DNA of 32,000 nt from Fidelibacterota bacterium (GCA_043822705.1 JBDRBK010000110.1:1-32000); one strand, 5' to 3'; counted from the stretch's first letter, positions 4,153 to 32,000 are shown. Numbers and translations are program-made. Notes: generated by a model from the sequence alone, not told the origin.

Positions 4153-5502
4153 TTAGTCTGGATTGTACTCAAAACTCTCAAGAAAACTGGTATCATATTC
4201 ACCGGCGCGGAATTTTTCATCATGCATGATGGCCTGATGGAATGGAATCGTGGTCTTCGGACCTTCGATGATGCATTCCTCCAGCGCCCGCTGCATCCGG
4301 TTGATCGCTCCCTGGCGACTGTTGGCACGGACGATCAGCTTGGCGATCAGTGAATCGTATTGCGTCGGTATCTGATAGCCGGCATAGACATGCGTATCGA
4401 TCCGCACGCCCTTGCCACCGGGCATGTGAAAACTATCGACCCAGGCTGGTGACGGAACAAAATTATGCGCCGGATCTTCGGCGTTGATCCGACATTCGAT
4501 CGCATGCCCGCGCAATTTAACATGTTTGAAATAATCGGGAAAGCGTTCACCGGCATGCATCCGGATCTGCTGTTTCAGCAGGTCACAACCAATGACCATC
4601 TCCGTGACCGGATGCTCAACCTGAATTCGGGTGTTCATCTCCATGAAATAAAATTTCTTATCCTTATCCAGCAGAAATTCGACCGTACCGACACCGATAT
4701 AACCCACTGCTTTGGCACCCCGGATCGCCGCATCACCCATTTTCTGGCGCAGCTTGTCGTCGACAGCGGATGAGGGCGATTCCTCGATCAATTTCTGATG
4801 ACGGCGCTGTATCGAACATTCACGCTCACCCAGATGAACCACGTTACCAAACGCATCGGCAACGATCTGAATCTCGATATGCCGCGGTTTTTCGACATAT
4901 TTTTCAACGTAGATATCACCGTTTCCAAAAGCGGTCAATGATTCGGCCGTAGCGGTTTTGAAGGCTAATTCAATTCCCTCCGCCGAACGTACCACCCGCA
5001 TACCGCGACCACCACCACCGGCGGAGGCCTTGAGGATCACCGGGTAACCGATTACATCCGCCTGCTCCCTGGCTTCCCTGGCGTTTTTCACCACGCCCGC
5101 ACTCCCCGGAATCACCGGAACGCCCGCCGCCTTCATGGTCAGTTTGGCCTGGGATTTATTCCCCATGGCATTGATGATCTCGGCACTGGGGCCGATAAAG
5201 GCAAAGTCGTTTTCGGCACAAATATTGGAGAAGTTGGCGTTCTCCGCCAGAAATCCGTACCCGGGATGAATGGCATCGGCATCGGTGATTTCGCCGGCGG
5301 CGATAATGTGTGGAATATTCAGATAGCTCTCGCTGCTGGCAGGCGGACCAATACAGACCGCTTCGTCGGCAAACCGCACATGTAGCGACAGCTCATCGGC
5401 GGTGGAATAAACCGCGACGGTTTTAATTCCCAATTCGTGGCAGGCGCGGATTATCCGCAGGGCGATCTCGCCGCGATTGGCGATGAGAATTTTCTTAAAC
5501 AA
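4153..5502 (-). CDS. accC: Acetyl-CoA carboxylase, biotin carboxylase subunit
   Basis: 449 aa. Starts [20 protein letters not shown] and has the ATP-grasp glycine loop [13 protein letters not shown] and [14 protein letters not shown]. Canonical size and position after accB. Confidence 0.95.
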
Positions 5503-5541
5503 CCGACACCCCGCCCACTTGCGTTTGATCCGGGAAAAAAA

Positions 5542-5988
5542 TCATTCGATCAAGAATAATGGCTGGTTGAATTCCACCGGCTTGCCATTTTCCACGAGTA
5601 CTTTCTTGACCGTACCGCCGATGCTGGTTTCGATTTCATTCATGATCTTCATCGCTTCGACGATGCATAGCGAATCGCCCTTTTCCACCCGGTCGCCGAT
5701 TTGGACGTATGGTTCAGATTCGGGATTCGGGGCGCAGTAAAATGTGCCGGGCATCGGCGACTTGACTTCAACACCATTTTCAATGACACTATCCACCGCG
5801 GATGCTGAATCAGCATCCGGGCTGTTTACCGGAGCTGTATTCACTGTCGTGGCTGGCGTCGTTGTGCTGTGAAATGACCCGGGATTTTTCACGACCCGGT
5901 ATTTGCGTCCCCAGAACGTAGCTTCGATCTCGTTTACATCGCTTTGCTCGAGGATATAGATCATTTCTTTCAGTTTATTCTTCCACAT
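5542..5988 (-). CDS. accB: Acetyl-CoA carboxylase biotin carboxyl carrier protein
   Basis: 148 aa. Has an Ala/Pro/Thr-rich linker and a C-terminal biotinyl domain with CIVEAMKIMNEIE (the EAMK biotinylation motif). Confidence 0.9.
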   Translation of the reverse strand: MWKNKLKEMIYILEQSDVNEIEATFWGRKYRVVKNPGSFHSTTTPATTVNTAPVNSPDADSASAVDSVIENGVEVKSPMPGTFYCAPNPESEPYVQIGDRVEKGDSLCIVEAMKIMNEIETSIGGTVKKVLVENGKPVEFNQPLFLIE

Positions 5989-6017
5989 CGGCTTGCCCTT
6001 CTACCTTTCCGGGATGA

Positions 6018-6584
6018 TTATCCAATCTGGACCCGCTCGATATATTCACCGGTCCTGGTATCAATTTTCAGGATATCGCCGGTATTGATGAACAACGGTA
6101 CCGTGACGGTATAGCCCGTCTCAACGGTGGCGGGCTTGGTGGCGCCGGTGGCGGTGTTACCTTTCATTCCCGGTTCGGTATGGGTTACGGTCAGCTCGAT
6201 ATGAGCCGGCAGCCGCACATCCAAAGCTTCCGTACCATCAAAAATAAGATCGACATTCAGTCCGGGCTTTAAAAAATTCTTGCCTTCGGCAACGACTGCT
6301 TCCGGAACCTGAACCTGATCATAGCTGTCGTTGTCCATAAATAAGTAAGATTCACCATCCTCATACAAGTATTGCATCTGTCGGGCCTCGATCCGGATGG
6401 TCTCGATCCGGGCACCGGAATTGAAAGTGTGATCGATTACCTTGCCGGTCTGGATATCTTTTAATTTGGTGCGCACAAAAGCGCCGCCCTTGCCGGGCTT
6501 GACGTGTAAAAACTCCACAACTTTCATCCTTTTACCGCGATGCAACAGTACTACACCATTTTTTATTTCAGCCGTCGTCGCCAT
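6018..6584 (-). CDS. efp: Translation elongation factor P
   Basis: The ORF-track ORF (to 6761) carries a 59-aa unrelated extension that overlaps the upstream gene. The true start is ATG at 6584 (MATTAEIKNGVVLLHRGKRMKVVEFLHVKPGKGGAFVRTKLKD...), preceded by AAGGAG about 10 nt upstream. The KPGKGGAF loop contains the conserved modified Lys. 188 aa. Confidence 0.93.
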   Translation of the reverse strand: MATTAEIKNGVVLLHRGKRMKVVEFLHVKPGKGGAFVRTKLKDIQTGKVIDHTFNSGARIETIRIEARQMQYLYEDGESYLFMDNDSYDQVQVPEAVVAEGKNFLKPGLNVDLIFDGTEALDVRLPAHIELTVTHTEPGMKGNTATGATKPATVETGYTVTVPLFINTGDILKIDTRTGEYIERVQIG

Positions 6585-6618: not shown

Positions 6619-7608
6619 TCAGGCGGTCGGACTTTCAAATTTTGATTCACCGCTATCAGCGACCGAATTTTGTTTCCAGATGGAGACGGTGGCGGCAATA
6701 AAATTTCCGGCCTGATCGAGATCGGTCCGGCAAATCTCCGGTGTCGGAATCTGCCGTGCAAATTTTATCAGGTCAGATCGTTTCAGCATCTCCAGCCATT
6801 CGTCCACCAATCCGGTCGGAAACGGCAGCAACCGGCGATTTTCTTCGATCTCAGTTGTGGTCATCTCAAGCGTTTTAATGTACACGCTGTTTTCAACATA
6901 CTCACGCAGAAGATAAGATAAATCGAAATAATAATCCTTGACCCGCCCCTTTTCCCAGGGCCGGTCAGTACCAAGACGTTTCAATTTGGCCAACGCGATC
7001 ACATCCGCCGGTTCCGTCGGCACTGTTGCCACCCCTGGCCGTACGGGAGCAACAAAACGACGGCGCCAGAGCAGCACCAATGTTGCCATCAAAGTAAATA
7101 GAAGTGAAATATATAACATTGTTTTCCAGGGCCAGGGAAAACGAACCGGTACCGGCCCTTTGATTGGACGCAAGCCGCTTTGGGTCGTCGCTCCGATCAG
7201 GGATTGCACGCGGATCGGAACCGGATCGGTGGTCAGGATGAAACTGTCACCAGTTTCCGGTACCGTGATCCGGACGGGAAAGGCCGGGATTTCCAGACGT
7301 CCCGTGTCCCAGACGGCGATACCGATAGCCAACCCATAGTCGTCGCGGTACTCACCGGTTAATTCCCGGCGATCCCTGATTTCCAGACGACTGGAATCCA
7401 CTTCCCAGTTCAGGAATTCAACCACGCGCTTTCCGGCCCCGTGCACCCAGATTCGATAGTCGATCACATCACCGATAGTGGCGATGGTCGTATCCACTTG
7501 TGCCTCGATATAAAAGGATTCGGGTGAGTAATTCGAGCCACAACCGGAATACAGCACCAGCGATAGAGTGAGCAAAAATAGCGGTGACCGGGGCCGGCTG
7601 TTTTTCAT
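6619..7608 (-). CDS. Membrane-anchored lipoprotein, BatD-N-like beta-rich domain fused to a DUF4381-like TM/helical domain (Bat/aerotolerance-operon type)
   Basis: 329 aa. Has a signal peptide with the lipobox-like LVLYSGC, and a mid-protein TM segment MLYISLLFTLMATLVLLW followed by RRRF. The C-terminal helical part (ALAKLKRL...YYFDLSYLLREYVEN...TTTEIEE...LIKFAR) matches my memory of DUF4381. Lies directly downstream of MoxR-DUF58, with a 1-nt stop/start overlap. Family assignment is from memory, not a search. Confidence 0.45.
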   Translation of the reverse strand: MKNSRPRSPLFLLTLSLVLYSGCGSNYSPESFYIEAQVDTTIATIGDVIDYRIWVHGAGKRVVEFLNWEVDSSRLEIRDRRELTGEYRDDYGLAIGIAVWDTGRLEIPAFPVRITVPETGDSFILTTDPVPIRVQSLIGATTQSGLRPIKGPVPVRFPWPWKTMLYISLLFTLMATLVLLWRRRFVAPVRPGVATVPTEPADVIALAKLKRLGTDRPWEKGRVKDYYFDLSYLLREYVENSVYIKTLEMTTTEIEENRRLLPFPTGLVDEWLEMLKRSDLIKFARQIPTPEICRTDLDQAGNFIAATVSIWKQNSVADSGESKFESPTA

Positions 7609-8483
7609 CAGTAACGTTTTTCGCGCTTTCTGAAATAGGCCATAATCGGTTCGACGAAATCGTCACGGGTGGAGATCTGAATCAGGTCGAATTTCATCTG
7701 GTCGCAGGTTTTTTTAAAATCTTCAAATTCCTGCTGGCGCGCAGTCTTAAAGGCCAGTCGCTCTTTGTATGAACCGGTATCGATCCAGAACTGCTGGTCG
7801 TTTTCCGGATCGTGCACTTTTACCAGCCCGATGTCGGGCAGTTCCGTTTCCAGCGGATCGAACAACTGGATGCCGATAAAGTCGTGTTTTCGATTGGCGA
7901 TCCGCAGTGATTTCAAATAATCCTGATCGATAAAATCGGAAATCAGGAAAACAACGCTGCGTCTTTTGGCGACCTGCAGTAAAAAATCCACCGCATTGGC
8001 GATTGACGTGCCCTTGCCTTCCGGCTTGTGGTATAACAGTTCACGGACCACCCGCAGCACATGCGACCGTCCTTTTTTTGGTACAATATATTTTTCGACT
8101 TCTTCGCTGAACAGGATCAGACCGACTTTATCATTATTTTTAATCGCGGAAAATCCCAGGACCGCCCCGATCTCGGCGCCGATTTCAGTCTTGAATTTGT
8201 CGCAACTGCCAAAGTGGCCGGAGCGGCTCACATCGACGAGCAGGAAAACCGTCAGTTCACGTTCTTCTTCAAAAACTTTGATAAACGGATTGCCGGTACG
8301 GGCGGTGACATTCCAGTCAATCAGGCGGATATCATCCCCGGGTTGGTATTCCCGCACTTCGGAAAACATCATACCGCGCCCTTTAAATACGGAATGATAT
8401 TCACCGCCAAACAGCTCGTTGACCAGTCCCCGGGTGCGAATCTCAATCCGCCGGACTTTGCGCAGAACTTCCTTTGGGATCAT
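7608..8483 (-). CDS. DUF58 domain protein (vWA-like, MoxR partner)
   Basis: 291 aa. The N-terminus LRKVRRIEIRTRGLVNELFGGEYHSVFKGRGMMFSEVREYQPGDDIRLIDWNVTARTG is the canonical DUF58 signature. A VFLLVDVSRSG MIDAS-like segment is present. Sits 6 nt downstream of MoxR. Confidence 0.85.
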   Translation of the reverse strand: MIPKEVLRKVRRIEIRTRGLVNELFGGEYHSVFKGRGMMFSEVREYQPGDDIRLIDWNVTARTGNPFIKVFEEERELTVFLLVDVSRSGHFGSCDKFKTEIGAEIGAVLGFSAIKNNDKVGLILFSEEVEKYIVPKKGRSHVLRVVRELLYHKPEGKGTSIANAVDFLLQVAKRRSVVFLISDFIDQDYLKSLRIANRKHDFIGIQLFDPLETELPDIGLVKVHDPENDQQFWIDTGSYKERLAFKTARQQEFEDFKKTCDQMKFDLIQISTRDDFVEPIMAYFRKREKRY

Positions 8484-8489
8484 AATAAA

Positions 8490-9482
8490 TCAGGGAACTT
8501 CGATGGAATCAAACAGTCGCTGAATGATATCCTCGGAGGTCAATTCTTCGGCTTCCGCCTCGTAGGTCAGTATAATCCGGTGCCGCAGCACATCGGCCCC
8601 GATATAGCGCACATCCTCGGGAGTTATATAGCCACGGTGCTGCAGAAAAGCCCGCGCCTTGGCCGCCAGAATCAGATTGATCGAAGCCCGCGGCGAGGCG
8701 CCATAGGCGATCAGGTCACCGAGATCATTCAATTTATAATGCCGGGGATCGCGGGTGGCAAAAACCAGGTTCAGTACATAATTCTCGACTTTCTCGTCGA
8801 CATAAATTTCACTAATGGTTTTCTGGGCCTGAATAATCTGTTCCGGCGTGATGACCGGCTGAATTTCTGCGGGCTGTCCGGTCCGGGCGACTTGCCGAAT
8901 TATCTGGCGTTCTTCCTCGAAATTAGGGTAATCCACCTTCAGTTTCAGCATGAAACGGTCGACCTGCGCTTCCGGCAACGGATAAGTTCCTTCCTGTTCG
9001 ATCGGATTCTGCGTGGCCAGCACCAAGAACGGTTCATCCAGTTTGAAGGTGTTCTCGCCAATCGTGACCTGCCGTTCCTGCATCGCCTCCAGCAAGGCGC
9101 TCTGGACCTTGGCCGGGCTTCGATTGATTTCGTCTCCAAGGATAATATTGGCGAAAATCGGTCCCTTGCGGGTCTTGAAACCACCGGATTTCTGGTCGTA
9201 GATCAGGGTGCCGATCAAATCCGCCGGTAGCATATCGGGCGTGAACTGGATCCGTTGGAAGTGGGTGTTGATAGCCTGGGCCAGGGTCTTTACGGTCAAG
9301 GTTTTCGCCAGACCGGGAACCCCTTCCAGTAGAATGTGGCCGTTGGCCAGCAGGCTGATTATGATCTTGTCGATCAGTTCGGATTGGCCGACAATTACCT
9401 GCCGTAACGCTCGTTTAAGATCGTCGACAAAAGCCGATTCGCGGGCGATCCGCTCATTGATTTCGCTTAGACTGAATTCCAT
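8490..9482 (-). CDS. MoxR-family AAA+ ATPase
   Basis: 330 aa. Has Walker A LLEGVPGLAKT, Walker B ILGDEINR, and the typical MoxR tail YGASPRASINLILAAKARAFLQHRGYITPEDV. Confidence 0.9.
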   Translation of the reverse strand: MEFSLSEINERIARESAFVDDLKRALRQVIVGQSELIDKIIISLLANGHILLEGVPGLAKTLTVKTLAQAINTHFQRIQFTPDMLPADLIGTLIYDQKSGGFKTRKGPIFANIILGDEINRSPAKVQSALLEAMQERQVTIGENTFKLDEPFLVLATQNPIEQEGTYPLPEAQVDRFMLKLKVDYPNFEEERQIIRQVARTGQPAEIQPVITPEQIIQAQKTISEIYVDEKVENYVLNLVFATRDPRHYKLNDLGDLIAYGASPRASINLILAAKARAFLQHRGYITPEDVRYIGADVLRHRIILTYEAEAEELTSEDIIQRLFDSIEVP

Positions 9483-9512
9483 GATTCCCTAATACCAAAT
9501 GAAGGTGAATAA

Positions 9513-10004
9513 TCAGGAGGTAATATTTTTCAATACCTCGATTTCATTAATATCTTTGCCCAGATACTGTAGTTCAAACCTGACCGAAGGAGCCAGCTCG
9601 TGGTCCGGGAATTTCCCCAGAAATGCCTCATATTCGATCTTGGCTTTTTCAAATTGAGACAGAATGTTACTGTAAATATAACCGATCATGAACCGGGCAT
9701 GTGGTTCTTCAGGCGCATTGTCAAAATCATCGATCACCTTGCGGTATTCTTTGATCGCCTGTTCAAAATCACGCAGATCATTCATGTATATGTCACCGAT
9801 GATATACTGTGATTTAGTAACCAGATTATCGCCGCTGAAATGCTGAACCAGCAATTTAAGATCGTTGATGGCAAATTCTGTTTCCTTGGCCTGCCGATGT
9901 TTTTCCGCCCGGTTGAACAGTTCCATCGCCGTCTTGGGAATTTTTTCACCGCAGGCCGACAGCAACAGGATAACGACAGTAATAAGAATTAGTTTAACCT
10001 TCAT
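9513..10004 (-). CDS. Small TPR-repeat lipoprotein (BamD/YbgF-like helical repeats)
   Basis: 163 aa. Has a signal peptide with the canonical lipobox LLLSAC, followed by TPR-like repeats (AINDLKLLVQHFSG..., YIIGDIYMNDLRDFEQAIKEYRKVIDDF, ARFMIGYIYSN..FEKAKIEYEAFLGKFP). The BamD-like relationship is inference from architecture and from its position after the Omp85 gene. Confidence 0.6.
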   Translation of the reverse strand: MKVKLILITVVILLLSACGEKIPKTAMELFNRAEKHRQAKETEFAINDLKLLVQHFSGDNLVTKSQYIIGDIYMNDLRDFEQAIKEYRKVIDDFDNAPEEPHARFMIGYIYSNILSQFEKAKIEYEAFLGKFPDHELAPSVRFELQYLGKDINEIEVLKNITS

Positions 10005-25155: not shown

Positions 25156-26272
25156 CTATACTTTTTTCCCGGCGCTATCCTTCATCTGCCATAGCAGGTA
25201 GGCCCGGATAAAACGGTCGATCTCGCCGTCCATGACCGCCTGAACGTTGCCGGTCTCTTCTTTGGTACGGTGATCTTTGACCATGTTGTAGGGATGAAAT
25301 ACATATGACCGAATCTGACTGCCCCAGCCAATATCCAGTTTACTTTTCTCCAGCTCAGAATGAGCATCCCGCTCACGGTCGATTTCAATCTGGTACAACC
25401 GTGATTTCAGAACCTTTAAGGCCTGGGCCTTGTTTTTATGCTGTGAGCGTTCATTCTGGCAGGAAACCACGATTCCGGTGGGCAGGTGGGTGATCCGGAT
25501 CGCTGAATCGGTTTTATTGACATGCTGTCCGCCGGCCCCGCTGGCCCGGAAGGTATCGATCCGCAATTCACTGGGATTGATTTCGATTTCGATATCCTCG
25601 GTGACGGCCGGATAGACAAATACCGATGCAAATGAGGTGTGTCGACGGCTGTTGGCATCGAATGGCGAGATGCGCACCAGGCGGTGAATGCCGGCTTCGG
25701 CCTTGAGCAGTCCGTAGGCATAATCGCCCTGAATCTCGAAGGTCACGTCCTTAATGCCGGCCTCGTCGCCTGGTTGATAGTCCAGGATGTCGACCTCGAA
25801 TCCTTTTTTTTCGAACCAGCGCTTGTACATACGCGACAGCATATCAGCCCAGTCCTGGCTCTCCGTTCCACCGGCGCCGGGGTGAATTTGCAGAATCGCC
25901 GGCAGGACATCCTGCTCTTCGCCCAGCATCATTTTTAATTCCAGATCTTCGATGATGTGTCGGTACTCCCGCAATTCGAGCTGTACTTCGTCGCTGGTCG
26001 CTGCGCCGGCTTCGGCAAATTCCATTAACACTTCCAGATCGCCGTGACGGCGTTCCAGATCGTTCCAGAGCGCAATTTCTTTTTCCAGGAGGGATATTTT
26101 TTTCAGAACGGACGAAGCAGCGGCATTGTCATTCCAAAATGCGGGAACCGCCGATTGCTCCCGGAGCTGATTCAGTTGGGCTGTGTGCGAATCCAGGTCA
26201 AAGATACCTCCGCAATTCGAGGTATTTTGTCTCCGTGGCGGTAAAATGCTCTCTTAGCTCGGCTAATTCCAT
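25156..26272 (-). CDS. prfB: Peptide chain release factor 2, expressed via programmed +1 ribosomal frameshift
   Basis: The ORF track shows only the 3' part (25156..26031). Hand translation from ATG at 26272 gives MELAELREHFTATETKYLELRRYL, then an in-frame TGA (26200..26198) within CTT TGA C. Shifting +1 (skipping T26200) reads DLDSHTAQLNQLREQSAVPAFWNDNAAASSVLKKISLLEKEIALWNDLERRHGDLEVLMEFAEAG..., continuous with the track ORF. The SPF motif (RISPFDANSRRHTSF) and GGQ motif (SGAGGQHVN) are present. About 371 aa in total. Confidence 0.93.
26197..26211 (-). other. RF2 autoregulatory +1 frameshift site: internal SD-like GGAGG, 3-nt spacer, slippery CTT TGA C
   Basis: The minus strand reads GGAGG TAT CTT TGA C. 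GGAGG is at 26211..26207, CTT at 26203..26201, TGA at 26200..26198 and C at 26197. This is the same layout as the E. coli prfB site (AGGGGG TAT CTT TGA C). Confidence 0.9.
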
Positions 26273-26310: not shown

Positions 26311-26339
26311 AAAATATGCGGGCGTAACACCGCACGCCC
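26311..26339 (-). terminator. Possible intrinsic terminator after the cytochrome cluster
   Basis: The minus-strand RNA folds as GGGCGU-gcgguguu-ACGCCC (6-bp GC-rich stem, 8-nt loop), followed by GCAUAUUUU. It lies about 130 nt downstream of the nonaheme cytochrome stop and about 40 nt upstream of the prfB ATG. The U-tract is short and interrupted. Confidence 0.35.
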
Positions 26340-26468: not shown

Positions 26469-27710
26469 TCAATTCGGTTTTTTCTCGATGGCCCGGATGT
26501 AAAGGTACAGCACTATTGCCAGGAAACTGATCATGATTGTAGCGATTCCCAGACCGATACGGCGCCAGCGAAAATCAGCGATCAGTTCATCGACACCGAG
26601 AATTACGGCACGGGCGATTGCCAGCCCGGGACCGGTTGATTCGGTCACCTGGTCAAGATCGAAACTATGTACCGTAGTGCGTGATTGAACCAGGCTGGTA
26701 TGGCCGTTCTGGATATCAAATATCAGATTTTCGGTTTCCAGCCCCTGCTGCTCGGCCAGTTTCACCGCCGTCTCAGCCGCCTCCAATTCGTCGTTCAATT
26801 CGTTCAAAGCAGCCTTAATGCCGTCACCGATTTGGGCTCCCGGATCGCCGTCGGCATGGCAACTCCCGCAGATACCGGGCGCTGCAACACCGATCATTGC
26901 TTCCGAAGGATGGATAATCGCATGGGCGGTGTGGCAGGCGGCACAGCCATGAATGTCATTTTCGAGGAAAACAGTATGCATAACCGTTCCGTTGAACAAA
27001 GCCTGGTTTTTCACATGGCAGGTACCACAAACCTCCTGAATCGATCCCAGCGCCGGCGGGGCGGCACCATGATTGCCGTGGCAATTATTGCAGGTGGGAG
27101 CCGCCAGGTCGCCCTTTTCCAGCAGGGCGATGCCGTGAACACTGGCTCGGTATTGACCAACCGATTCGAATGGCAGCCCGTATTTGCCCATCAATTGCCG
27201 GTCACTGTGACAGCGACCGCAGGTTATATCGACATTGGCATGGTACACGGAGGCGGCCGGGTCGTTCTTCTTCCTGATTCCATGCACGTCATGACAGGAG
27301 ACGCAGGTCGCCATGTCAACGTTACCCTGTTTAAGGCTGGCACCGTGACCGCTGGTCCAGTATTTGGCTTCCTGATCGGTGGGCATATTGGGATTGTATG
27401 TCCGCATGAATTGTGGATTACTGTGACACTTGCTGCAAACTTCAATAATTCCAACGCCGGCAGGGACACCAATAAATCCCGCCTTTTCAGATTTAGCCTC
27501 ATCATAATCCCAGGCTTCCGGATCGCCGCCATGGCAGATGGTGCAGTTAAATCCGGCGACCGAATGGACATCATCAGCGAACAGTTCGACCGGGGCGTTT
27601 AAAGGCTGGTCCAGTTCCTGATGGCAACCGGCACAGGATACAGCTTCATTTTGAGCAAAGACGCTGACAGTGATCGCCAGCCAACTGATAATAAGTTTTG
27701 TTAGTTTCAT
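26469..27710 (-). CDS. Nonaheme c-type cytochrome, periplasmic with C-terminal TM anchor (putative cytochrome c subunit of the Rieske/cyt b complex)
   Basis: Preferred start is ATG at 27710 (MKLTKLIISWLAITVSVFA|QNE signal peptide), which overlaps the cyt b stop as ATGA. Nine CXXCH motifs are present: CAGCH, CTICH, CSKCH, CVSCH, CGRCH, CNNCH, CGTCH, CAACH, CGSCH. These are followed by a helical/coiled segment and a TM helix, IGLGIATIMISFLAIVLYLYI. Confidence 0.85.
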   Translation of the reverse strand: MKLTKLIISWLAITVSVFAQNEAVSCAGCHQELDQPLNAPVELFADDVHSVAGFNCTICHGGDPEAWDYDEAKSEKAGFIGVPAGVGIIEVCSKCHSNPQFMRTYNPNMPTDQEAKYWTSGHGASLKQGNVDMATCVSCHDVHGIRKKNDPAASVYHANVDITCGRCHSDRQLMGKYGLPFESVGQYRASVHGIALLEKGDLAAPTCNNCHGNHGAAPPALGSIQEVCGTCHVKNQALFNGTVMHTVFLENDIHGCAACHTAHAIIHPSEAMIGVAAPGICGSCHADGDPGAQIGDGIKAALNELNDELEAAETAVKLAEQQGLETENLIFDIQNGHTSLVQSRTTVHSFDLDQVTESTGPGLAIARAVILGVDELIADFRWRRIGLGIATIMISFLAIVLYLYIRAIEKKPN

Positions 27711-28771
27711 ACCAGGTACCCCCATACGGTCATGATGAGGATGTAAAGAATTATGATCGACCCAATAATCTTTAATCGCCGGTAGCGACGGACATCATCC
27801 TTGCGGTCCAGAAATGGCACCAACAGCCAGATCAGCCCGCCGATCATAAATCCGAGGATTCCCAGCACCTCACCCTCGATAAACCAGACATGTCCGGGAA
27901 TAAATTTCAGGGTCTGGAACATGAACATAAAGTACCATTCGGGCCGGATATTGGCCGGTGCCGAAGCGAATAAATCCGCTTTCGATCCCAATTCCCAAGG
28001 AAAAAACACCGCCAGAATCGCCAGCACGTTCAGGACGATCAGCCACAGGAGTATATCACGCAAAACAAAACTGGGGAAGAATGGCATAAATTTGCGTTTT
28101 TGTTCCGGCAATTTTTCCCAGTTATGGGGAGTGGACATCCCCTGGATTTGGATCAGGGCCAGGTGAATCCCCAAAAACACCACAAAAATTCCAGGGAAAA
28201 TGGCCACATGAAAACCGAAAAACCGTGGTAGCGTAGCGCCGGTAACATCGGGACTACCACGGAGCACGGTCATGATGCCCTTGCCGACAACCGGAATGGC
28301 ACCCACGATTTCCGTTCCCACTTTCGTTGCGAAAAAAGCCAGTTCATTCCAGGGTAACAGATAACCGCTGAATCCGAAACCGAAACCCAGCAACAGCAGG
28401 ATAACACCACTGACCCAGGTCAGTTCACGCGGTTTGCGATAGCTACGATCGAAAAACACAGAAAACATGTGTATGAAAGCAGCCAGGATCATCAGATTGG
28501 CCGACCAACTATGCACGGATCTGATCAACCAGCCGAACTTCACCTTGGACATGATAAACTGAATCGATTCAAACGCCTCGCTGGCACTGGCCTTGTAATA
28601 CATCAGCAGCAATATGCCGGACAAGACTTGCACCACGAACAGGAATAGGGCCACTCCGCCCATATAGTACCAATACCAACCGGGACCGGCCGGTACTTTT
28701 TTCTTGGCCATGAATAGAACTATCGGCTCGAAATCAAAGCGTTCTTCCAGCCAGGCTCTGATTGTCTTCAT
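27707..28771 (-). CDS. Cytochrome b of a Rieske/cytochrome b (bc1/b6f-type) complex, unsplit b6 + subunit IV
   Basis: Preferred start is ATG at 28771 (MKTIRAWLEERF...), overlapping the Rieske stop by 1 nt (TGATG). The helix B His pair is in SVHSWSANLMILAAFIHMF, with 13 residues between. The helix D His pair is in FHVAIFPGIFVVFLGIH, with 14 residues between, which is b6-like. The Qo-site PEWY motif is present (NIRPEWYFMFMFQ). 354 aa. Confidence 0.9.
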   Translation of the reverse strand: MKTIRAWLEERFDFEPIVLFMAKKKVPAGPGWYWYYMGGVALFLFVVQVLSGILLLMYYKASASEAFESIQFIMSKVKFGWLIRSVHSWSANLMILAAFIHMFSVFFDRSYRKPRELTWVSGVILLLLGFGFGFSGYLLPWNELAFFATKVGTEIVGAIPVVGKGIMTVLRGSPDVTGATLPRFFGFHVAIFPGIFVVFLGIHLALIQIQGMSTPHNWEKLPEQKRKFMPFFPSFVLRDILLWLIVLNVLAILAVFFPWELGSKADLFASAPANIRPEWYFMFMFQTLKFIPGHVWFIEGEVLGILGFMIGGLIWLLVPFLDRKDDVRRYRRLKIIGSIIILYILIMTVWGYLV

Positions 28772-29247
28772 CAAGCCTCCTTTCGCGAAACCCAAATTTC
28801 GCCATTGGACTTGATATTGACGGCAAATTCCTCCAGCGGGCGCGGCGGCGGACCGGATAGGATATTACCATTAATATCAAATTTTGCGTTATGACAGGCA
28901 CACCAGATATACTTGTCCTCCTGCTGATACTGGACGATGCAGGATAAATGGGTGCAGGTCGCCGACAAGGCTCGATAATTGCCTGTTCCGTCCTTGAATA
29001 AAATGCCCGGTTTGCGTCCGAAAGGAAAAATCTTAAATGCTTTCTCCCAGGTATCGTCGATTCGGCCCACCTGAATGGAATTGACAGCTGCTTCTCCGGC
29101 CGGGGGCGGAATCAGGTAGCGGATTACCGGGTAAGTGATACTGCCCAGCCAACCCAGTATACCTAATCCAAGTAGTTTCTGTAGAATGCTTCTCCGATCG
29201 GTACCGACTACTTTTTCGTCGGTGACCGCCTGTTTTTTTTCCATCAT
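28771..29247 (-). CDS. Rieske [2Fe-2S] iron-sulfur protein with twin-arginine (TAT) signal/anchor
   Basis: 158 aa. The TAT motif TDRRSILQKLLGLGILGWLG is present. Cluster box I is CTHLSC and box II is CACHNAKF, about 19 residues apart, and both disulfide cysteines are present. Confidence 0.88.
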   Translation of the reverse strand: MMEKKQAVTDEKVVGTDRRSILQKLLGLGILGWLGSITYPVIRYLIPPPAGEAAVNSIQVGRIDDTWEKAFKIFPFGRKPGILFKDGTGNYRALSATCTHLSCIVQYQQEDKYIWCACHNAKFDINGNILSGPPPRPLEEFAVNIKSNGEIWVSRKEA

Positions 29248-29285
29248 ACCTAGCGTTCCCGTTTGTTAGACTGTGAATCAGTTGA

Positions 29286-29301
29286 TGCTTGTACAGTGCC
29301 A
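29286..29301 (-). promoter_or_regulatory. Candidate sigma-54 (RpoN) -24/-12 promoter upstream of the Rieske gene
   Basis: The minus strand reads TGGCAC-tgtac-AAGCA. The -24 hexamer is perfect and the GG-N10-GC spacing is correct. The -12 element is AAGCA rather than TTGCA. It lies about 40-55 nt upstream of the Rieske ATG, inside the only sizeable gap (120 nt) in the cluster. Confidence 0.3.
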
Positions 29302-29367
29302 ACTCCCCCGCTAGATCAATTTTGGGCAATAATCTGAATTTAGCCGTCGGATAAATTCCAGTGGCAT

Positions 29368-30867
29368 TCAGTTACTGGTCCGTAAAAATTCCTCCTGCAG
29401 ATACTTATGCAAAATTGCCTCCCTGCCGGCAATCCCCGACTTTTCCAGGTATTCAAAAATCTGGTCTGAACGTTGTGCCAGAATCGAATGGCAGAGGGTG
29501 CAGTTAGCGGAAATATTGTTCCCCTGATCATCCAGCAGATACTGGTTATGACAACGATAACACCCCAGATCATGCTCGTGACCGACATGATCGGGATAGC
29601 TGCCCCAGGTGATGCTCATCCGGGGGTGGATGTTGCGCTTATAGACGTCCTGAAGTGTTGCGATCGCCTGATCTAACAGGTCCTGGTTGGCGGCCGTGAA
29701 TTCCGGATAATTATGATTATAATAGGACTGGATAATAAATCGGATTTTTTCCAGACCATTTTCCTTAGTCCGGAAATTGGAATTCTTTAACGCTTTCAAT
29801 CCCTCGCGCTTGATGTATGGAATCCGGCGATCAATCAGGCCAGAGCGAATCCGGTCATCGATGGCGTTATCCGGATCCTCGTAAATATGAGTCGCCCGGT
29901 TATGGCAATCGACACAGTCGAGAGTGCGAACTGTTTCGGAATTAATTTCCGAATTATTCAGATTGCGGTTGTTGTAGCGCTTGTAACTACCGTCCGGTTG
30001 CAGCACTTCGACCCAGGCGATTTCCTCACGTTCATCGGTAACCGAAACAAATCGTACTTCATTCTCCCGGGCGATGTGCCAGTGAATCCCCGACGGCTGC
30101 GCCCCCTTTCCCGCATCGATTTTCAGCAACAGCGTGGTATACTGCGGATTCGAATGCTCGTCCTGACCATAGTGAATTGTCGATTTCAGGCGCCGACCGT
30201 AAAATTTGTCCGGCCAGTGGCATTTTTCGCAGGTTTCCCGGGCCGGGCGCAGGTTGTGCACCGGCGTTGGAATCGGTCGATTATAAAGATCGAAAGTGGC
30301 GGAAACCATCTGCCAGACACCATTCAATTTGGCATCAAATTTGGCGCCGACCCCTTCACCGATATGGCAATCAACGCAGGCCACCCGAGCATGCGGACTC
30401 TGCTGATAGGCCGCCCATTCGGGTCCCATGACGTCGTGGCAGGCGGTCCCGCAAAATTCGGAGGAATCCATGAAATGCAGCGCATTGATACTGACCGAAC
30501 TGAGAAATACAATACTGGCGACGGTTAGGATGGTGACAATCCACAAAGCTCGCGAACCGGTAATCCGTGCTTTCAAATCATCAGGATCGAAACTTTCCGC
30601 GAACAGTTCACGGGTGGTTTTTCCGGTTGTTTTCCGGAATTGCCACCAGCCGATCGGTACCAGGATCAGGCCCAGAATGAACAGGGCCGGGAATAAAAGA
30701 TAGGCAATCAGTCCGGCATAGGCATTAGCGAATAGTCCGATGAATTGCAGTATCTGGAAAAAGAAAAAAGATACCGTCGACGACAAGATCAGGATCACAC
30801 CCACCTTACCGGTCCAATGTCGTGATAGACGCCGGACGATATTGATATATTTTAGAAAGCGGTTCAT
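29368..30867 (-). CDS. Membrane-bound multiheme c-type cytochrome, NapC/NirT-like quinol-interacting module with extended periplasmic domain (ImcH-like architecture)
   Basis: 499 aa with three N-terminal hydrophobic helices. The NapC/NirT-like segment reads FCGTACHDVMGPEWAAYQQSPHARVACVDCHIG. There are five CXXCH motifs (CVDCH, CEKCH, CVDCH, CYRCH, CTLCH) plus one CX3CH (CGTACH). Its start overlaps the HAO-like gene stop as ATGA (30864..30867). Confidence 0.8.
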   Translation of the reverse strand: MNRFLKYINIVRRLSRHWTGKVGVILILSSTVSFFFFQILQFIGLFANAYAGLIAYLLFPALFILGLILVPIGWWQFRKTTGKTTRELFAESFDPDDLKARITGSRALWIVTILTVASIVFLSSVSINALHFMDSSEFCGTACHDVMGPEWAAYQQSPHARVACVDCHIGEGVGAKFDAKLNGVWQMVSATFDLYNRPIPTPVHNLRPARETCEKCHWPDKFYGRRLKSTIHYGQDEHSNPQYTTLLLKIDAGKGAQPSGIHWHIARENEVRFVSVTDEREEIAWVEVLQPDGSYKRYNNRNLNNSEINSETVRTLDCVDCHNRATHIYEDPDNAIDDRIRSGLIDRRIPYIKREGLKALKNSNFRTKENGLEKIRFIIQSYYNHNYPEFTAANQDLLDQAIATLQDVYKRNIHPRMSITWGSYPDHVGHEHDLGCYRCHNQYLLDDQGNNISANCTLCHSILAQRSDQIFEYLEKSGIAGREAILHKYLQEEFLRTSN

Positions 30868-32000
30868 TCAGAATCGTAAAAACGCCGGTACAAAGCTTCC
30901 AGCTCGCCACTGTGAATCGCTTTTTTCAACTCGCTTTCAGAGCGGTTCATCCAGTTGTGCAGTGGATCTTCAATCAGCAACCGATCGATCATCGCATTCA
31001 CTTCGGCATCGTTCAGTTTCCGCGCTTCCGGTAGCAACTTGAAATAGAAATTATGCGCCACATCGTACATCCCGTGCCACCAGGCGTAATCCGGACCTGC
31101 CATCGCCACACCATGACGCGCCCGGCGGCCTTCATGATGCCACAGTTCCCAATAAATCCATTCGATTCCATTGCCGAAAGCCGCCTGGTTCTCCAGCAAT
31201 CCTTTCTTCTTGATCAGATCGATCAGCTCAGTGGCCGGACGGGCAAATTTTTCATCGTACAGTTTTACGAAGCTATCGAATTGGTAAAAATGACCGGAAA
31301 TAAATGTTGAAGTATGGCAGGCCTGACAGACATCCTTCATATTCTTGCGCTTCTCGGAATAATCATCTTTAAGCTGTGAGATTGGAGGCCGTAGCGACCA
31401 TTGAATACGGTTTCCCACATCATGGGTGGATTCCTGAAAACGGGTGGCTCCCATATGGCAGGTAACACAGGTCGGCGCTTCATAATAATCCTCGCCGACT
31501 ATCCAACTGTATGAATCAAGATTCATCTTATCCCGGTTGGTGTAATAAATATTACCGTGCTTGGATTCCTCATATACTTCTTTCTGAGGATGATCCGGCC
31601 CTAAATGACATTTCGAGCAGGCTTCCGGCTGGCGGGCCTGGGCCTTGGAAAAACCGTGCCGGGTGTGGCAGGCATTGCAGGAGCCTTTGGATCCATCGGG
31701 ATTGATGCGACCGATCCCGGAATTGGGCCAGGATTGGCGATCCAGCTTGTTCGGCGAATTGGGATCGATTTTTATTCGAGCCCCATGGCAACTTTCACAA
31801 CCGGTAACCACTACCTGATGACCGCCGAGCACATTCGCCAGATAGGCATCCTGCGATTCGAGGATCATTCCGGCCGTGGCATGATAGGAAGCGCCGACTT
31901 CCTCCATTTCCTTCTCATGGCAGATGCCGCAATCATCAGGTGTGACCAGGGTTGCGACATAACTATCTTCGTGCAGGAAGGCATCCACGTCGTCTTCCGC
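30864..32000 (-). CDS. Hydroxylamine oxidoreductase (HAO)-family multiheme cytochrome c, 5'-truncated by the window edge
   Basis: The reading frame stays open to position 32000 (..AEDD before the track GTG). Six CXXCH motifs are visible: CGICH, CESCH, CNACH, CSKCH, CVTCH, CQACH. The block CNACHTRHGFSKAQARQPEACSKCHLGPDH...SKHG...APTCVTCHMG closely parallels the haem 5-7 region of Nitrosomonas HAO as I recall it. The C-terminal WELWHHEGRRARHGVAMAGPDYAWWHG is also HAO-family-like. Haems 1-2 and the signal peptide are presumably off-window. Confidence 0.8.
   Translation of the reverse strand, partial: AEDDVDAFLHEDSYVATLVTPDDCGICHEKEMEEVGASYHATAGMILESQDAYLANVLGGHQVVVTGCESCHGARIKIDPNSPNKLDRQSWPNSGIGRINPDGSKGSCNACHTRHGFSKAQARQPEACSKCHLGPDHPQKEVYEESKHGNIYYTNRDKMNLDSYSWIVGEDYYEAPTCVTCHMGATRFQESTHDVGNRIQWSLRPPISQLKDDYSEKRKNMKDVCQACHTSTFISGHFYQFDSFVKLYDEKFARPATELIDLIKKKGLLENQAAFGNGIEWIYWELWHHEGRRARHGVAMAGPDYAWWHGMYDVAHNFYFKLLPEARKLNDAEVNAMIDRLLIEDPLHNWMNRSESELKKAIHSGELEALYRRFYDSE

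Follow-up and report, generated by a model that had tools for sequence, protein, structure and literature searches.

Four kinds of described system bear on the locus analyzed here. Within the hydroxylamine oxidoreductase (HAO) family of octahaem cytochromes, the εHao type is recognized by a Trp that replaces the cross-link Tyr of the nitrifier enzymes and by a Met eight residues upstream of it (PMC8940962), and the HAOs lacking the cross-link that have been assayed to date reduce nitrite and hydroxylamine with negligible oxidation of hydroxylamine (PMC8042395). Homologues of ImcH, as surveyed by Zhong and Shi (PMC6295460), are proteins of ~495-519 aa with three N-terminal transmembrane (TM) segments, a CX3CH motif by TM3 and 5-9 CX2CH motifs, and in Geobacter sulfurreducens ImcH the haem-1 ligand His137 has been highlighted together with Lys173, Gln179 and Tyr188 (bioRxiv 10.1101/2023.05.03.539133). 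In Caldithrix abyssi a Rieske/cytochrome b complex has been proposed to feed electrons to εHao for nitrite ammonification (PMC5317091). Finally, the cytochromes b of Chlorobi, NC10 and Acidobacteria have been grouped into one clade with a PEWY motif (Kao and Hunte, PMC4122944). We describe here a cluster in which members of these families are neighbors: five open reading frames (ORFs), all called on the minus strand, at positions 26469-32000 of a 32,000-nucleotide stretch of DNA (the window) from Fidelibacterota bacterium (GCA_043822705.1 JBDRBK010000110.1:1-32000), a marine metagenome-assembled genome (MAG) that belongs, by NCBI naming, to Candidatus Neomarinimicrobiota (Marinimicrobia). We propose, with a probability of about 0.65, that the cluster consists of two independent quinol-oxidizing modules that adjoin one another in a respiratory locus of variable content. 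Module A would be an εHao/ImcH-type reductase of nitrite or hydroxylamine, and module B a Rieske/b6-like cytochrome b/nonahaem cytochrome complex. The observations that carry this proposal are the gene content, the motifs, the family memberships and the separate conservation of each module. The features are as follows.

30864..32000, minus strand: octahaem cytochrome c of probable εHao type, truncated at the window end (PF13447; identity with protein P0001)
29368..30867, minus strand: predicted ImcH-family (NapC/NirT-related) hexahaem quinol dehydrogenase, 499 aa (PF03264, architecture, key residues)
29248..29367, minus strand: intergenic gap of 120 nt that separates the two modules, A and B (direct count)
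28771..29247, minus strand: Rieske [2Fe-2S] subunit of 158 aa that carries a Tat signal (PF00355, CTHLSC/CACH, DRRSIL)
27707..28771, minus strand: fused b6-like cytochrome b with a subunit-IV-like C-terminus, 354 aa, ~8 TM segments (PF00033, PF00032)
26469..27710, minus strand: nonahaem cytochrome c of 413 aa, bearing a signal peptide and a TM anchor at its C-terminus (9 CXXCH)
26316..26339, minus strand: terminator-like GC hairpin with a T-rich tail (7 pairs, 5 of them GC; tail ATATTTTC)

A direct motif count gives 20 CXXCH and one CX3CH in the visible cluster (6 + 5 + 1 + 9). No CXXCH occurs in the other 20 genes of the window, which total 8371 aa, so that the haem density of the cluster is far above chance. 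A preliminary description of this DNA had counted 21 haem motifs; the number of sites stands, but one of the six in the 499-aa protein is CX3CH and therefore not canonical. The same description held that the genes are co-oriented, joined by three stop/start overlaps and interrupted by a single gap of 120 nt, and all of this is confirmed on the minus strand, with overlaps at 30864-30867 (ATGA), 28769-28773 (TGATG) and 27707-27710 (ATGA) and the gap at 29248-29367. The overlaps fix the true starts of the cytochrome b (ATG at 28771) and the nonahaem cytochrome (ATG at 27710), the latter in agreement with the NCBI protein P0121. The five family assignments made earlier, including the ImcH/NapC-like one, were upheld by searches of Pfam and NCBIfam and by the presence of three TM segments, one CX3CH and five CX2CH in the 499-aa protein.

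The window contains residues 61-438 of a 438-aa octahaem protein, in which six of the eight CXXCH are visible. A full-length protein, P0001, is 100% identical over the 378 visible residues and possesses a signal peptide and eight CXXCH. Through P0001 the octahaem protein thus has the mark of the HAO family, eight CXXCH in a single periplasmic polypeptide of ~440-550 aa. It matches PF13447 at 1.5e-29. Its nearest solved relative is IhOCC (4qo5; 2e-43, and 2.7e-59 with a profile), and it also matches the HAO of Nitrosomonas europaea (NeHAO; 4fas/1fgj, 3.3e-25) and the HAOr of Kuenenia (6h5l, Kustc0458; 1.1e-21), which lacks the cross-link. Asp196 and His197 align with the distal pair D267/H268 of NeHAO and are invariant in 16 homologues, as are Met360 and Trp368, which have the signature spacing of εHao. 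Another residue, Y365 (in 'PDYAWW'), was considered as the cross-link Tyr; it aligns with a Val of Kustc0458 and a Trp of IhOCC and was dropped for the published Met-x7-Trp register. Taken together, the sequence features indicate that the octahaem protein is probably an εHao-type, reductive HAO, since an εHao without the Tyr cross-link is expected to be a reductase rather than an oxidase. The preliminary description had suggested a quinol-dependent role with N-oxides and a substrate that it called unknown. The role remains plausible, and the choice of substrate is narrowed because the HAO is of the reductive type. The AlphaFold2 model of the protein was poor (predicted local distance difference test score, pLDDT, 56.8).

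The homology of the octahaem protein to NeHAO, noted above, and to hydrazine dehydrogenase might lead one to expect the reverse reaction. In this case it would oxidize hydroxylamine or hydrazine and deliver electrons to the quinone pool through its NapC-family partner, analogous to cM552, as the hydroxylamine:ubiquinone redox module (HURM) does in nitrifiers. This is very improbable. Trp368, together with Met360, forms the εHao signature that replaces the cross-link Tyr, the HAOs without the cross-link that have been tested are reductases with negligible oxidation (PMC8042395), and there are no amo or hzs genes near the cluster.

The second gene of module A overlaps the stop of the εHao gene with its own start, so that the two are translationally coupled. 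Its 499-aa product matches Pfam PF03264 at 1.7e-9, over residues 108-192, which corresponds only to the NapC/NirT N-terminal region, and NrfH is its sole match in the PDB. It is not NrfH: against the NrfH model TIGR03153 it scores 54.4 bits with a cut-off of 134.2, and it has three TM segments and six haem sites, compared with the tetrahaem, single-TM NrfH. Three N-terminal hydrophobic helices (residues ~19-37, 52-70 and 107-125) are followed by a CX3CH (CGTACH, 139-144) just after TM3 and by five CXXCH. Residues H144, K180, Q186 and Y195 correspond to H137, K173, Q179 and Y188 of G. sulfurreducens ImcH at a constant offset of +7, and in 14 homologues the six haem sites, H144, K180 and Q186 are invariant. 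No match of the 499-aa protein to a curated ImcH model was found in NCBIfam or Pfam; its assignment as a putative ImcH-family quinol dehydrogenase, like GSU3259, is drawn from the published architecture and residues.

The partnership of these two genes extends well beyond the window. A metagenome scan seeded with an εHao alignment yielded 80 loci, of which 70 were informative, with at least 500 nt of downstream sequence. In 46 of these 70 an ImcH-like gene comes directly after εHao on the same strand, 10-121 nt apart. The pair is found without the Rieske/cytochrome b/nonahaem trio in L001 (84% identity to the window protein for εHao and 78% for the partner, by BLASTP), in L083/L084 (εHao, 76%) and in L167/L168 (partner, 60%; L167 was unscored for εHao). 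About 22 of the 70 εHao orthologues have no adjoining cytochrome gene (L088, L089, L104, L129, L132, L148-L151 and others), and for these the electron donor must be encoded elsewhere. In other phyla further neighbors of εHao recur, whether or not an ImcH-like gene is there. Rrf2-family regulators lie directly upstream in L087, L154 and L159, hemerythrin-domain proteins adjoin in L146, L148 and L151, and Alginate_exp (AlgE-like outer-membrane) porins do so in 10 loci (L089, L094, L096, L097, L098, L106, L116, L134, L160 and L163). These neighbors suggest N-oxide-responsive regulation and a channel for anion uptake, and so lend mild and indirect support to a substrate that is an N-oxide or an anion. 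The εHao family is very large: 7997 of 8000 scored candidate proteins fell at E ≤ 1e-10. Apart from the identical P0001, the best 120 homologues show 65-84% identity and come from Melioribacteraceae, Zixibacteria, Thermoanaerobaculales, Marinimicrobia and proteobacterial MAGs; many of them carry the automatic name 'hydroxylamine dehydrogenase'. Among papers that name both ImcH and hydroxylamine oxidoreductase we found no description of the εHao-ImcH pairing.

Module B starts beyond the gap. Its Rieske protein matches PF00355 at 1.5e-12 and the PetC-like model of NCBIfam at 1.7e-18 (66.6 bits, cut-off 250), and it contains the boxes CTHLSC and CACH and a Tat motif, DRRSIL. The cytochrome b matches PF00033 at 3.2e-50 and PF00032 at 9.1e-10. 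It scores below the cut-offs of two NCBIfam models, that of cytochrome b6 (5.9e-67; 225.7 bits, cut-off 325) and that of ExtP (NF040969; 6.6e-60; 202.5 bits, cut-off 290). The best score of the cluster on the ExtM model (NF040943) was 15.8 bits, with a cut-off of 800. The haem ligands of the cytochrome b, H87/H101 and H188/H203, have the b6-type spacing of 13 and 14, and the Qo motif PEWY is at position 277. The Rieske boxes, the four His, the PEWY and the TGATG gene overlap place these two proteins in a Rieske/cytochrome b complex of the bc1/b6f superfamily. They do not form cytochrome b6f proper, given that the cytochrome b is fused, scores under the cut-offs and is accompanied by a nonahaem third subunit. 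A Met (in WYYMGG) stands at what we take to be the position of the haem-ci Cys of b6. The cytochrome b family of the window probably belongs to the PEWY clade of Chlorobi, NC10 and Acidobacteria introduced above.

The third protein has nine CXXCH, which are invariant in 14 homologues in which the C-terminal anchor is also kept; the TM helix lies at 385-403, and versions of the Ignavibacteria type have an insertion with two haems. Because it combines a signal peptide with a C-terminal TM helix, this nonahaem cytochrome would occupy the place of cytochrome c1 or f in the canonical complexes. Its AlphaFold2 model was poor (pLDDT 68.5), and a Foldseek comparison of that model with the PDB gave nothing significant (best E 0.61, TM-score 0.25). 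The literature searched held no description of such a third subunit.

The trio, too, has a life of its own. In 80 genomic loci collected with an alignment of the nonahaem cytochrome, 75 have a Rieske and/or b6-like cytochrome b gene adjoining it, and, of the five exceptions, four run into the end of a contig. The phyla represented are Marinimicrobia, Ignavibacteria/Bacteroidota, Acidobacteriota (including Chloracidobacterium), Gemmatimonadota, Zixibacteria, KSB1, Calditrichota, Rokubacteria and Elusimicrobia. A polytopic membrane protein of ~555 aa directly adjoins the trio at nine loci that represent several phyla (L013, L016, L018, L020, L022, L024, L027, L041 and L095, for example L095:7697-9400, minus strand); no comparable ORF was seen in the window. 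The trio of Acidobacteriota is also found within very haem-rich islands containing conserved ORFs with 8, 9, 4, 9 and 10 haems and an ImcH paralogue with seven CX2CH (L011, L012, L017, L022, L030, L032 and L033; Blastocatellia, Pyrinomonadaceae and Chloracidobacterium). These islands are candidate loci for extracellular electron transfer.

Such contexts raise an alternative in which the five genes of the window encode an inner-membrane gateway to extracellular or periplasmic metal reduction, the ImcH-like protein and the trio being alternative quinol oxidases and the octahaem protein a carrier or an enzyme outside nitrogen metabolism. The 499-aa protein does have the architecture of ImcH, and ImcH, CbcL and Cbc of Geobacter provide a model for such a gateway. 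Moreover, the cytochrome b resembles Geobacter ExtP, which sits with the Rieske protein ExtO amid multihaem genes (PMC5877670). In Acidobacteriota, Zixibacteria, KSB1 and Calditrichota the trio lies amid ORFs with 8 to 19 haems and ImcH paralogues, and a 17-haem NapC-like gene occupies the same chromosomal slot in L002, L082 and L166. However, the 26 kb of the window that can be read downstream of the cluster contain no porin-cytochrome conduit and no further multihaem gene. The octahaem protein retains the catalytic Asp/His pair, which is invariant in the family, and the ImcH clade linked to εHao is only 33-40% identical to the paralogues linked to the trio. Elsewhere the neighbors of the pair, Rrf2 and hemerythrin proteins, have the flavor of N-oxide stress. 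We consider a metal gateway improbable.

We return to the proposal of two independent modules and to the question of whether they form one unit, as the preliminary description had assumed. Of the εHao-ImcH pairs, 24 are followed by 1.5 kb or more of additional sequence, and none of these has the trio downstream (0/24); one of them, L095, carries a trio in divergent orientation 2.4 kb upstream of the pair. Conversely, none of the 80 trios has a close εHao orthologue within 10 kb (0/80), where we found only one homologue of 45% identity (L024) and two of 28% (L004 and L059). The relatives of the window share a chromosomal frame, with ZnuABC upstream and either TrmO (80-81%) or PrfB-LysS (82%, 73%) downstream, and the slot within this frame is filled in three ways. 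In L001, L083 and L167 it holds the pair only. In L002 and L082 it holds genes for a 17-haem NapC-like protein, an 8-haem cytochrome, a 4Fe-4S protein and an NrfD-like protein, and then the trio. In the window and L166 it holds the pair and then the trio. The slot therefore seems to act like a swap-in site for respiratory cassettes. The claim of one five-gene unit is not sustained by this comparison: the modules occur independently in relatives, and the five-gene synteny that was to be checked there recurs in L166 and is otherwise largely not conserved. As far as sequences can tell, the juxtaposition is real, persistent in a sub-lineage and dispensable for either module. Since the modules are normally apart, we regard it as a local pairing of known kinds and not as a new five-protein machine.

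L166 is the sole other example of the five-gene order, with identities of ~72% for εHao, 69% for the partner, 72% for the Rieske protein, 84% for the cytochrome b and 62% for the nonahaem cytochrome. In this locus the εHao gene (4935-6217) is split over two frames, and residues ~241-252, which in the window protein include the end of the seventh CXXCH, are unaligned at the break. The ZnuB gene (1660-2461) is frameshifted as well, and the two frameshifts are more likely to be indels of the assembly than signs of pseudogenes.

A single complex of five subunits, built like R/b-3 of Kuenenia, is another alternative. The Rieske/cytochrome b core would pass its high-potential electron through the nonahaem cytochrome directly to a bound εHao, nitrite reduction would be coupled to a Q cycle, and the ImcH-like protein would serve as an anchor or a second point of entry. 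Co-orientation, a 120-nt gap without a terminator-like hairpin and the identical order in L166 are all in its favor. So are two trio loci, namely KSB1 L024, in which the trio is followed by genes for an ImcH-like protein, a second Rieske protein, a second cytochrome b and an HAO (45%), and L004, in which the trio is followed by an HAO-family octahaem gene. In addition, C. abyssi has a Rieske-cytochrome b-εHao cluster, which the series in L024 resembles and for which such an electron route has been proposed (PMC5317091), the Kuenenia subunits co-migrate (PMC12954380), and the ~22 of 70 εHao orthologues without an adjoining cytochrome gene need another donor. On the other side, the closest relatives have the pair without the trio, no informative metagenome pair has the trio downstream, all 80 trios lack a close εHao, and in L002 and L082 the trio comes after a different module. 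Furthermore, εHao has a translationally coupled quinol dehydrogenase of its own, and a gene for the NAD(P) oxidoreductase subunit of the Kuenenia type was not found in the cluster or downstream of it within the window. We judge the supercomplex to be unlikely.

Several points weigh against our proposal of two independent modules. The five-gene order does recur, in L166, at protein identities of 62-84%. Of the 80 trio loci, 16 also have ImcH-family paralogues no more than 10 kb away. These are 33-40% identical to the ImcH protein linked to εHao, have 5-7 CX2CH and usually occur amid several ORFs with 8 to 19 haems; in L025, L033, L043 and L065 their place is directly upstream of the Rieske gene, and in L058 and L072 it is directly downstream of the nonahaem gene. 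As a rough estimate, fewer than 1% of genomes, by a wide margin, would have an unlinked single-copy gene this close to the trio; 16 of 80 is thus a clear excess, a hint that the two kinds of quinol oxidase are linked in some way. With the L024 series and its counterpart in C. abyssi, this makes it conceivable that the bc-type module feeds εHao here as well. The substitution of Trp for the cross-link Tyr was called from the motif spacing in the literature and not from a computed alignment to Tyr467 of NeHAO; neither the single-sequence nor the profile alignment by hidden Markov model extended that far. The placement of W368 at the position of the cross-link Tyr draws on this spacing and on the NeHAO sequence, and is provisional. 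We know of no enzymology for this εHao clade, and to our knowledge IhOCC, the closest solved protein, is without a settled physiological substrate. The genomic context was read within the window, and the status of nap/nar, hcp and nrfA lies beyond it; as far as the window shows, no nap genes are present downstream of the cluster, whose upstream side is cut by the window end. Lastly, as no terminator was detected in the gap and the five-gene order is repeated in L166, co-transcription or functional coupling of the modules in this sub-lineage is a possibility.

Signals of transcription were sought in and around the gap. No terminator-like hairpin was found in the 120 nt, whereas one lies 130 nt past the stop of the nonahaem gene (26339-26316), ahead of the prfB start at 26272, and is the probable end of the transcription unit. 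Co-transcription of the five genes is plausible. A candidate σ54 promoter in the gap (TGGCAC-N5-AAGC, 29301-29287) was rejected. The search gave two matches with 0.91 expected, 20% of shuffled sequences reach two, and the motif is absent upstream of the Rieske gene in 74 of 74 related loci. Alignment with the gaps of L166, L082 and L002 revealed no conserved element, and σ70-type scans of the gap gave background levels with models that exclude promoters of the type found in the Fibrobacteres-Chlorobi-Bacteroidetes (FCB) group.

The two modules may be pictured as working as follows; what they act on, which way electrons flow and any supply of εHao by module B are predictions. In module A, the ImcH-like protein would oxidize menaquinol at the periplasmic face, near the first haem, at a His/Gln-type site associated with the CX3CH. 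Its six haems would conduct electrons to the octahaem εHao in the periplasm, and εHao would reduce, most likely, nitrite and/or hydroxylamine or NO to ammonium. The module would then work like NrfHA or like the [HaoA]n-cM552 of a HURM run in reverse. Module B would be a quinol:cytochrome c oxidoreductase in which quinol is oxidized at the PEWY Qo site. One electron would pass by way of the Rieske protein to the nonahaem cytochrome, the substitute for c1 or f, and onward to periplasmic acceptors, while the other would cross the two b haems.

It is also conceivable, though doubtful, that εHao, in the sub-lineage to which the window and L166 belong, takes its electrons from two quinol oxidases encoded within one transcription unit, the ImcH-type being electroneutral and the Rieske/cytochrome b/nonahaem type electrogenic. 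If this were true, nitrite ammonification could be run either fast or in an energy-conserving, Q-cycle-coupled manner, depending on redox conditions. The locus would then match the Kuenenia R/b-HAO complex outside anammox, in bacteria that are abundant in oxygen-minimum zones, and a large clade of 'ImcH homologues' that are usually taken to indicate metal reduction would instead be partners of a nitrogen-cycle enzyme.

The rest of the window encodes ordinary functions of a diderm bacterium: XerD-like, GmhA-like, PcrB, GcvP, AccBC, EF-P, MoxR/DUF58, Omp85/TamB, DnaK, ClpB, LolCDE-like, LysS and PrfB proteins. Rfam and tRNA scans of the window gave no matches. These housekeeping neighbors and the Marinimicrobia source bear out the earlier impression of an FCB-like, non-anammox context. 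At 6619-10004 on the minus strand there is a Bat-like (MoxR-VWA) cluster, made up of a MoxR AAA ATPase gene, a DUF58/VWA gene, an ORF of 329 aa without a Pfam match and a gene for a TPR protein. The listed EF-P ORF (TTG at 6761) overlaps the 329-aa ORF, and its real start is probably further downstream. The prfB gene contains the classic programmed +1 frameshift site (26197-26272, minus strand). It begins with the ATG at 26272, a Shine-Dalgarno-like GGAGG lies at ~26211-26207 and CTTTGAC at 26203-26197, and the frame resumes in the ORF 25156..26031.

As a whole, these results partly support the interpretation of the five-gene cluster that was first offered. Marinimicrobia (SAR406) are abundant in the oxygen-deficient ocean, where it matters whether nitrite is retained as ammonium or lost as N2. 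A conserved εHao/ImcH-type module in such bacteria would represent NrfA-independent nitrite ammonification or N-oxide detoxification, and surveys based on nrfA would miss it. There is also a caution for annotation, in that ImcH-family genes beside εHao (46/70) ought not to be taken as evidence of extracellular metal reduction. The Rieske/b6-like/nonahaem trio, for its part, is a widespread and little-described bc variant common to many phyla.

How the locus stands among known systems may be seen by taking these in turn. The reverse-HURM, or HaoCA, system of Campylobacterota (Nautilia profundicola, Campylobacter; PMC3701875; Haase et al. 2017, cited in PMC8042395) also has an octahaem protein without the cross-link Tyr, with Trp in its place and Met eight before, alongside a membrane quinol dehydrogenase of the NapC/NirT family, and is predicted to reduce nitrite or hydroxylamine with quinol. 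Its partner is a tetrahaem protein with one TM segment, however, whereas that of the window is a six-haem, ImcH-type protein of 499 aa with three. In the window the enzyme gene comes first and is translationally coupled to its partner, and the lineage is Marinimicrobia/FCB. In Campylobacterota haoC precedes haoA, the reverse of the order seen here.

G. sulfurreducens ImcH (GSU3259; PMC4251993, PMC6295460) resembles the partner in its ~500 aa, its three N-terminal TM segments and the CX3CH by TM3, in the equal spacing of the haem-1 His and of the Lys, Gln and Tyr, and in its similarity to NapC/NirT over TM3 and the first haems. The window protein differs in having five CX2CH rather than six, and its gene is coupled to that of εHao and not to extracellular-electron-transfer cytochromes. 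With Geobacter ExtO/ExtP (Cbc6; extHIJKLMNOPQS, PMC5877670) module B has in common a Rieske protein and a b6-like cytochrome b encoded amid multihaem cytochromes, but ExtP is a 23-kDa protein comprising the b6 part only, and the companions in Geobacter have 12, 10, 5 and 4 haems.

The combination of a Rieske/cytochrome b complex with an HAO had been described as best known from anammox bacteria. The analogy holds in outline for the R/b-3 cluster of Kuenenia stuttgartiensis (Kuste4569-4574; PMC12954380), which brings together a Rieske protein, a b6-like cytochrome b, an anchored multihaem cytochrome c replacing cytochrome f and an HAO-like octahaem protein. The Kuenenia system has, in contrast, a split b6/SUIV, haem cN, an NAD(P) oxidoreductase subunit and subunits that co-migrate, while the window has a fused cytochrome b without the haem-ci Cys, an ImcH-like gene and separable modules. 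Geobacter ExtO/ExtP shows that pairs of a Rieske protein and a b6-like cytochrome amid multihaem genes occur beyond anammox too, and a case with εHao has been published, the C. abyssi cluster (Cabys_2564-2556; PMC5317091). The latter is likewise from an FCB bacterium, and in it εHao lies directly beside Rieske and cytochrome b genes. It differs in containing Nap and in its order, Rieske-b-εHao, and neither an ImcH-like nor a nonahaem protein is mentioned in PMC5317091. The occurrence of εHao beside Rieske and cytochrome b genes was thus already known from C. abyssi, and the five-gene juxtaposition in the window is a lineage-specific arrangement of known parts. What is new is at the level of variants, namely the ImcH-type partner of εHao and the little-described third subunit of a widespread bc complex.

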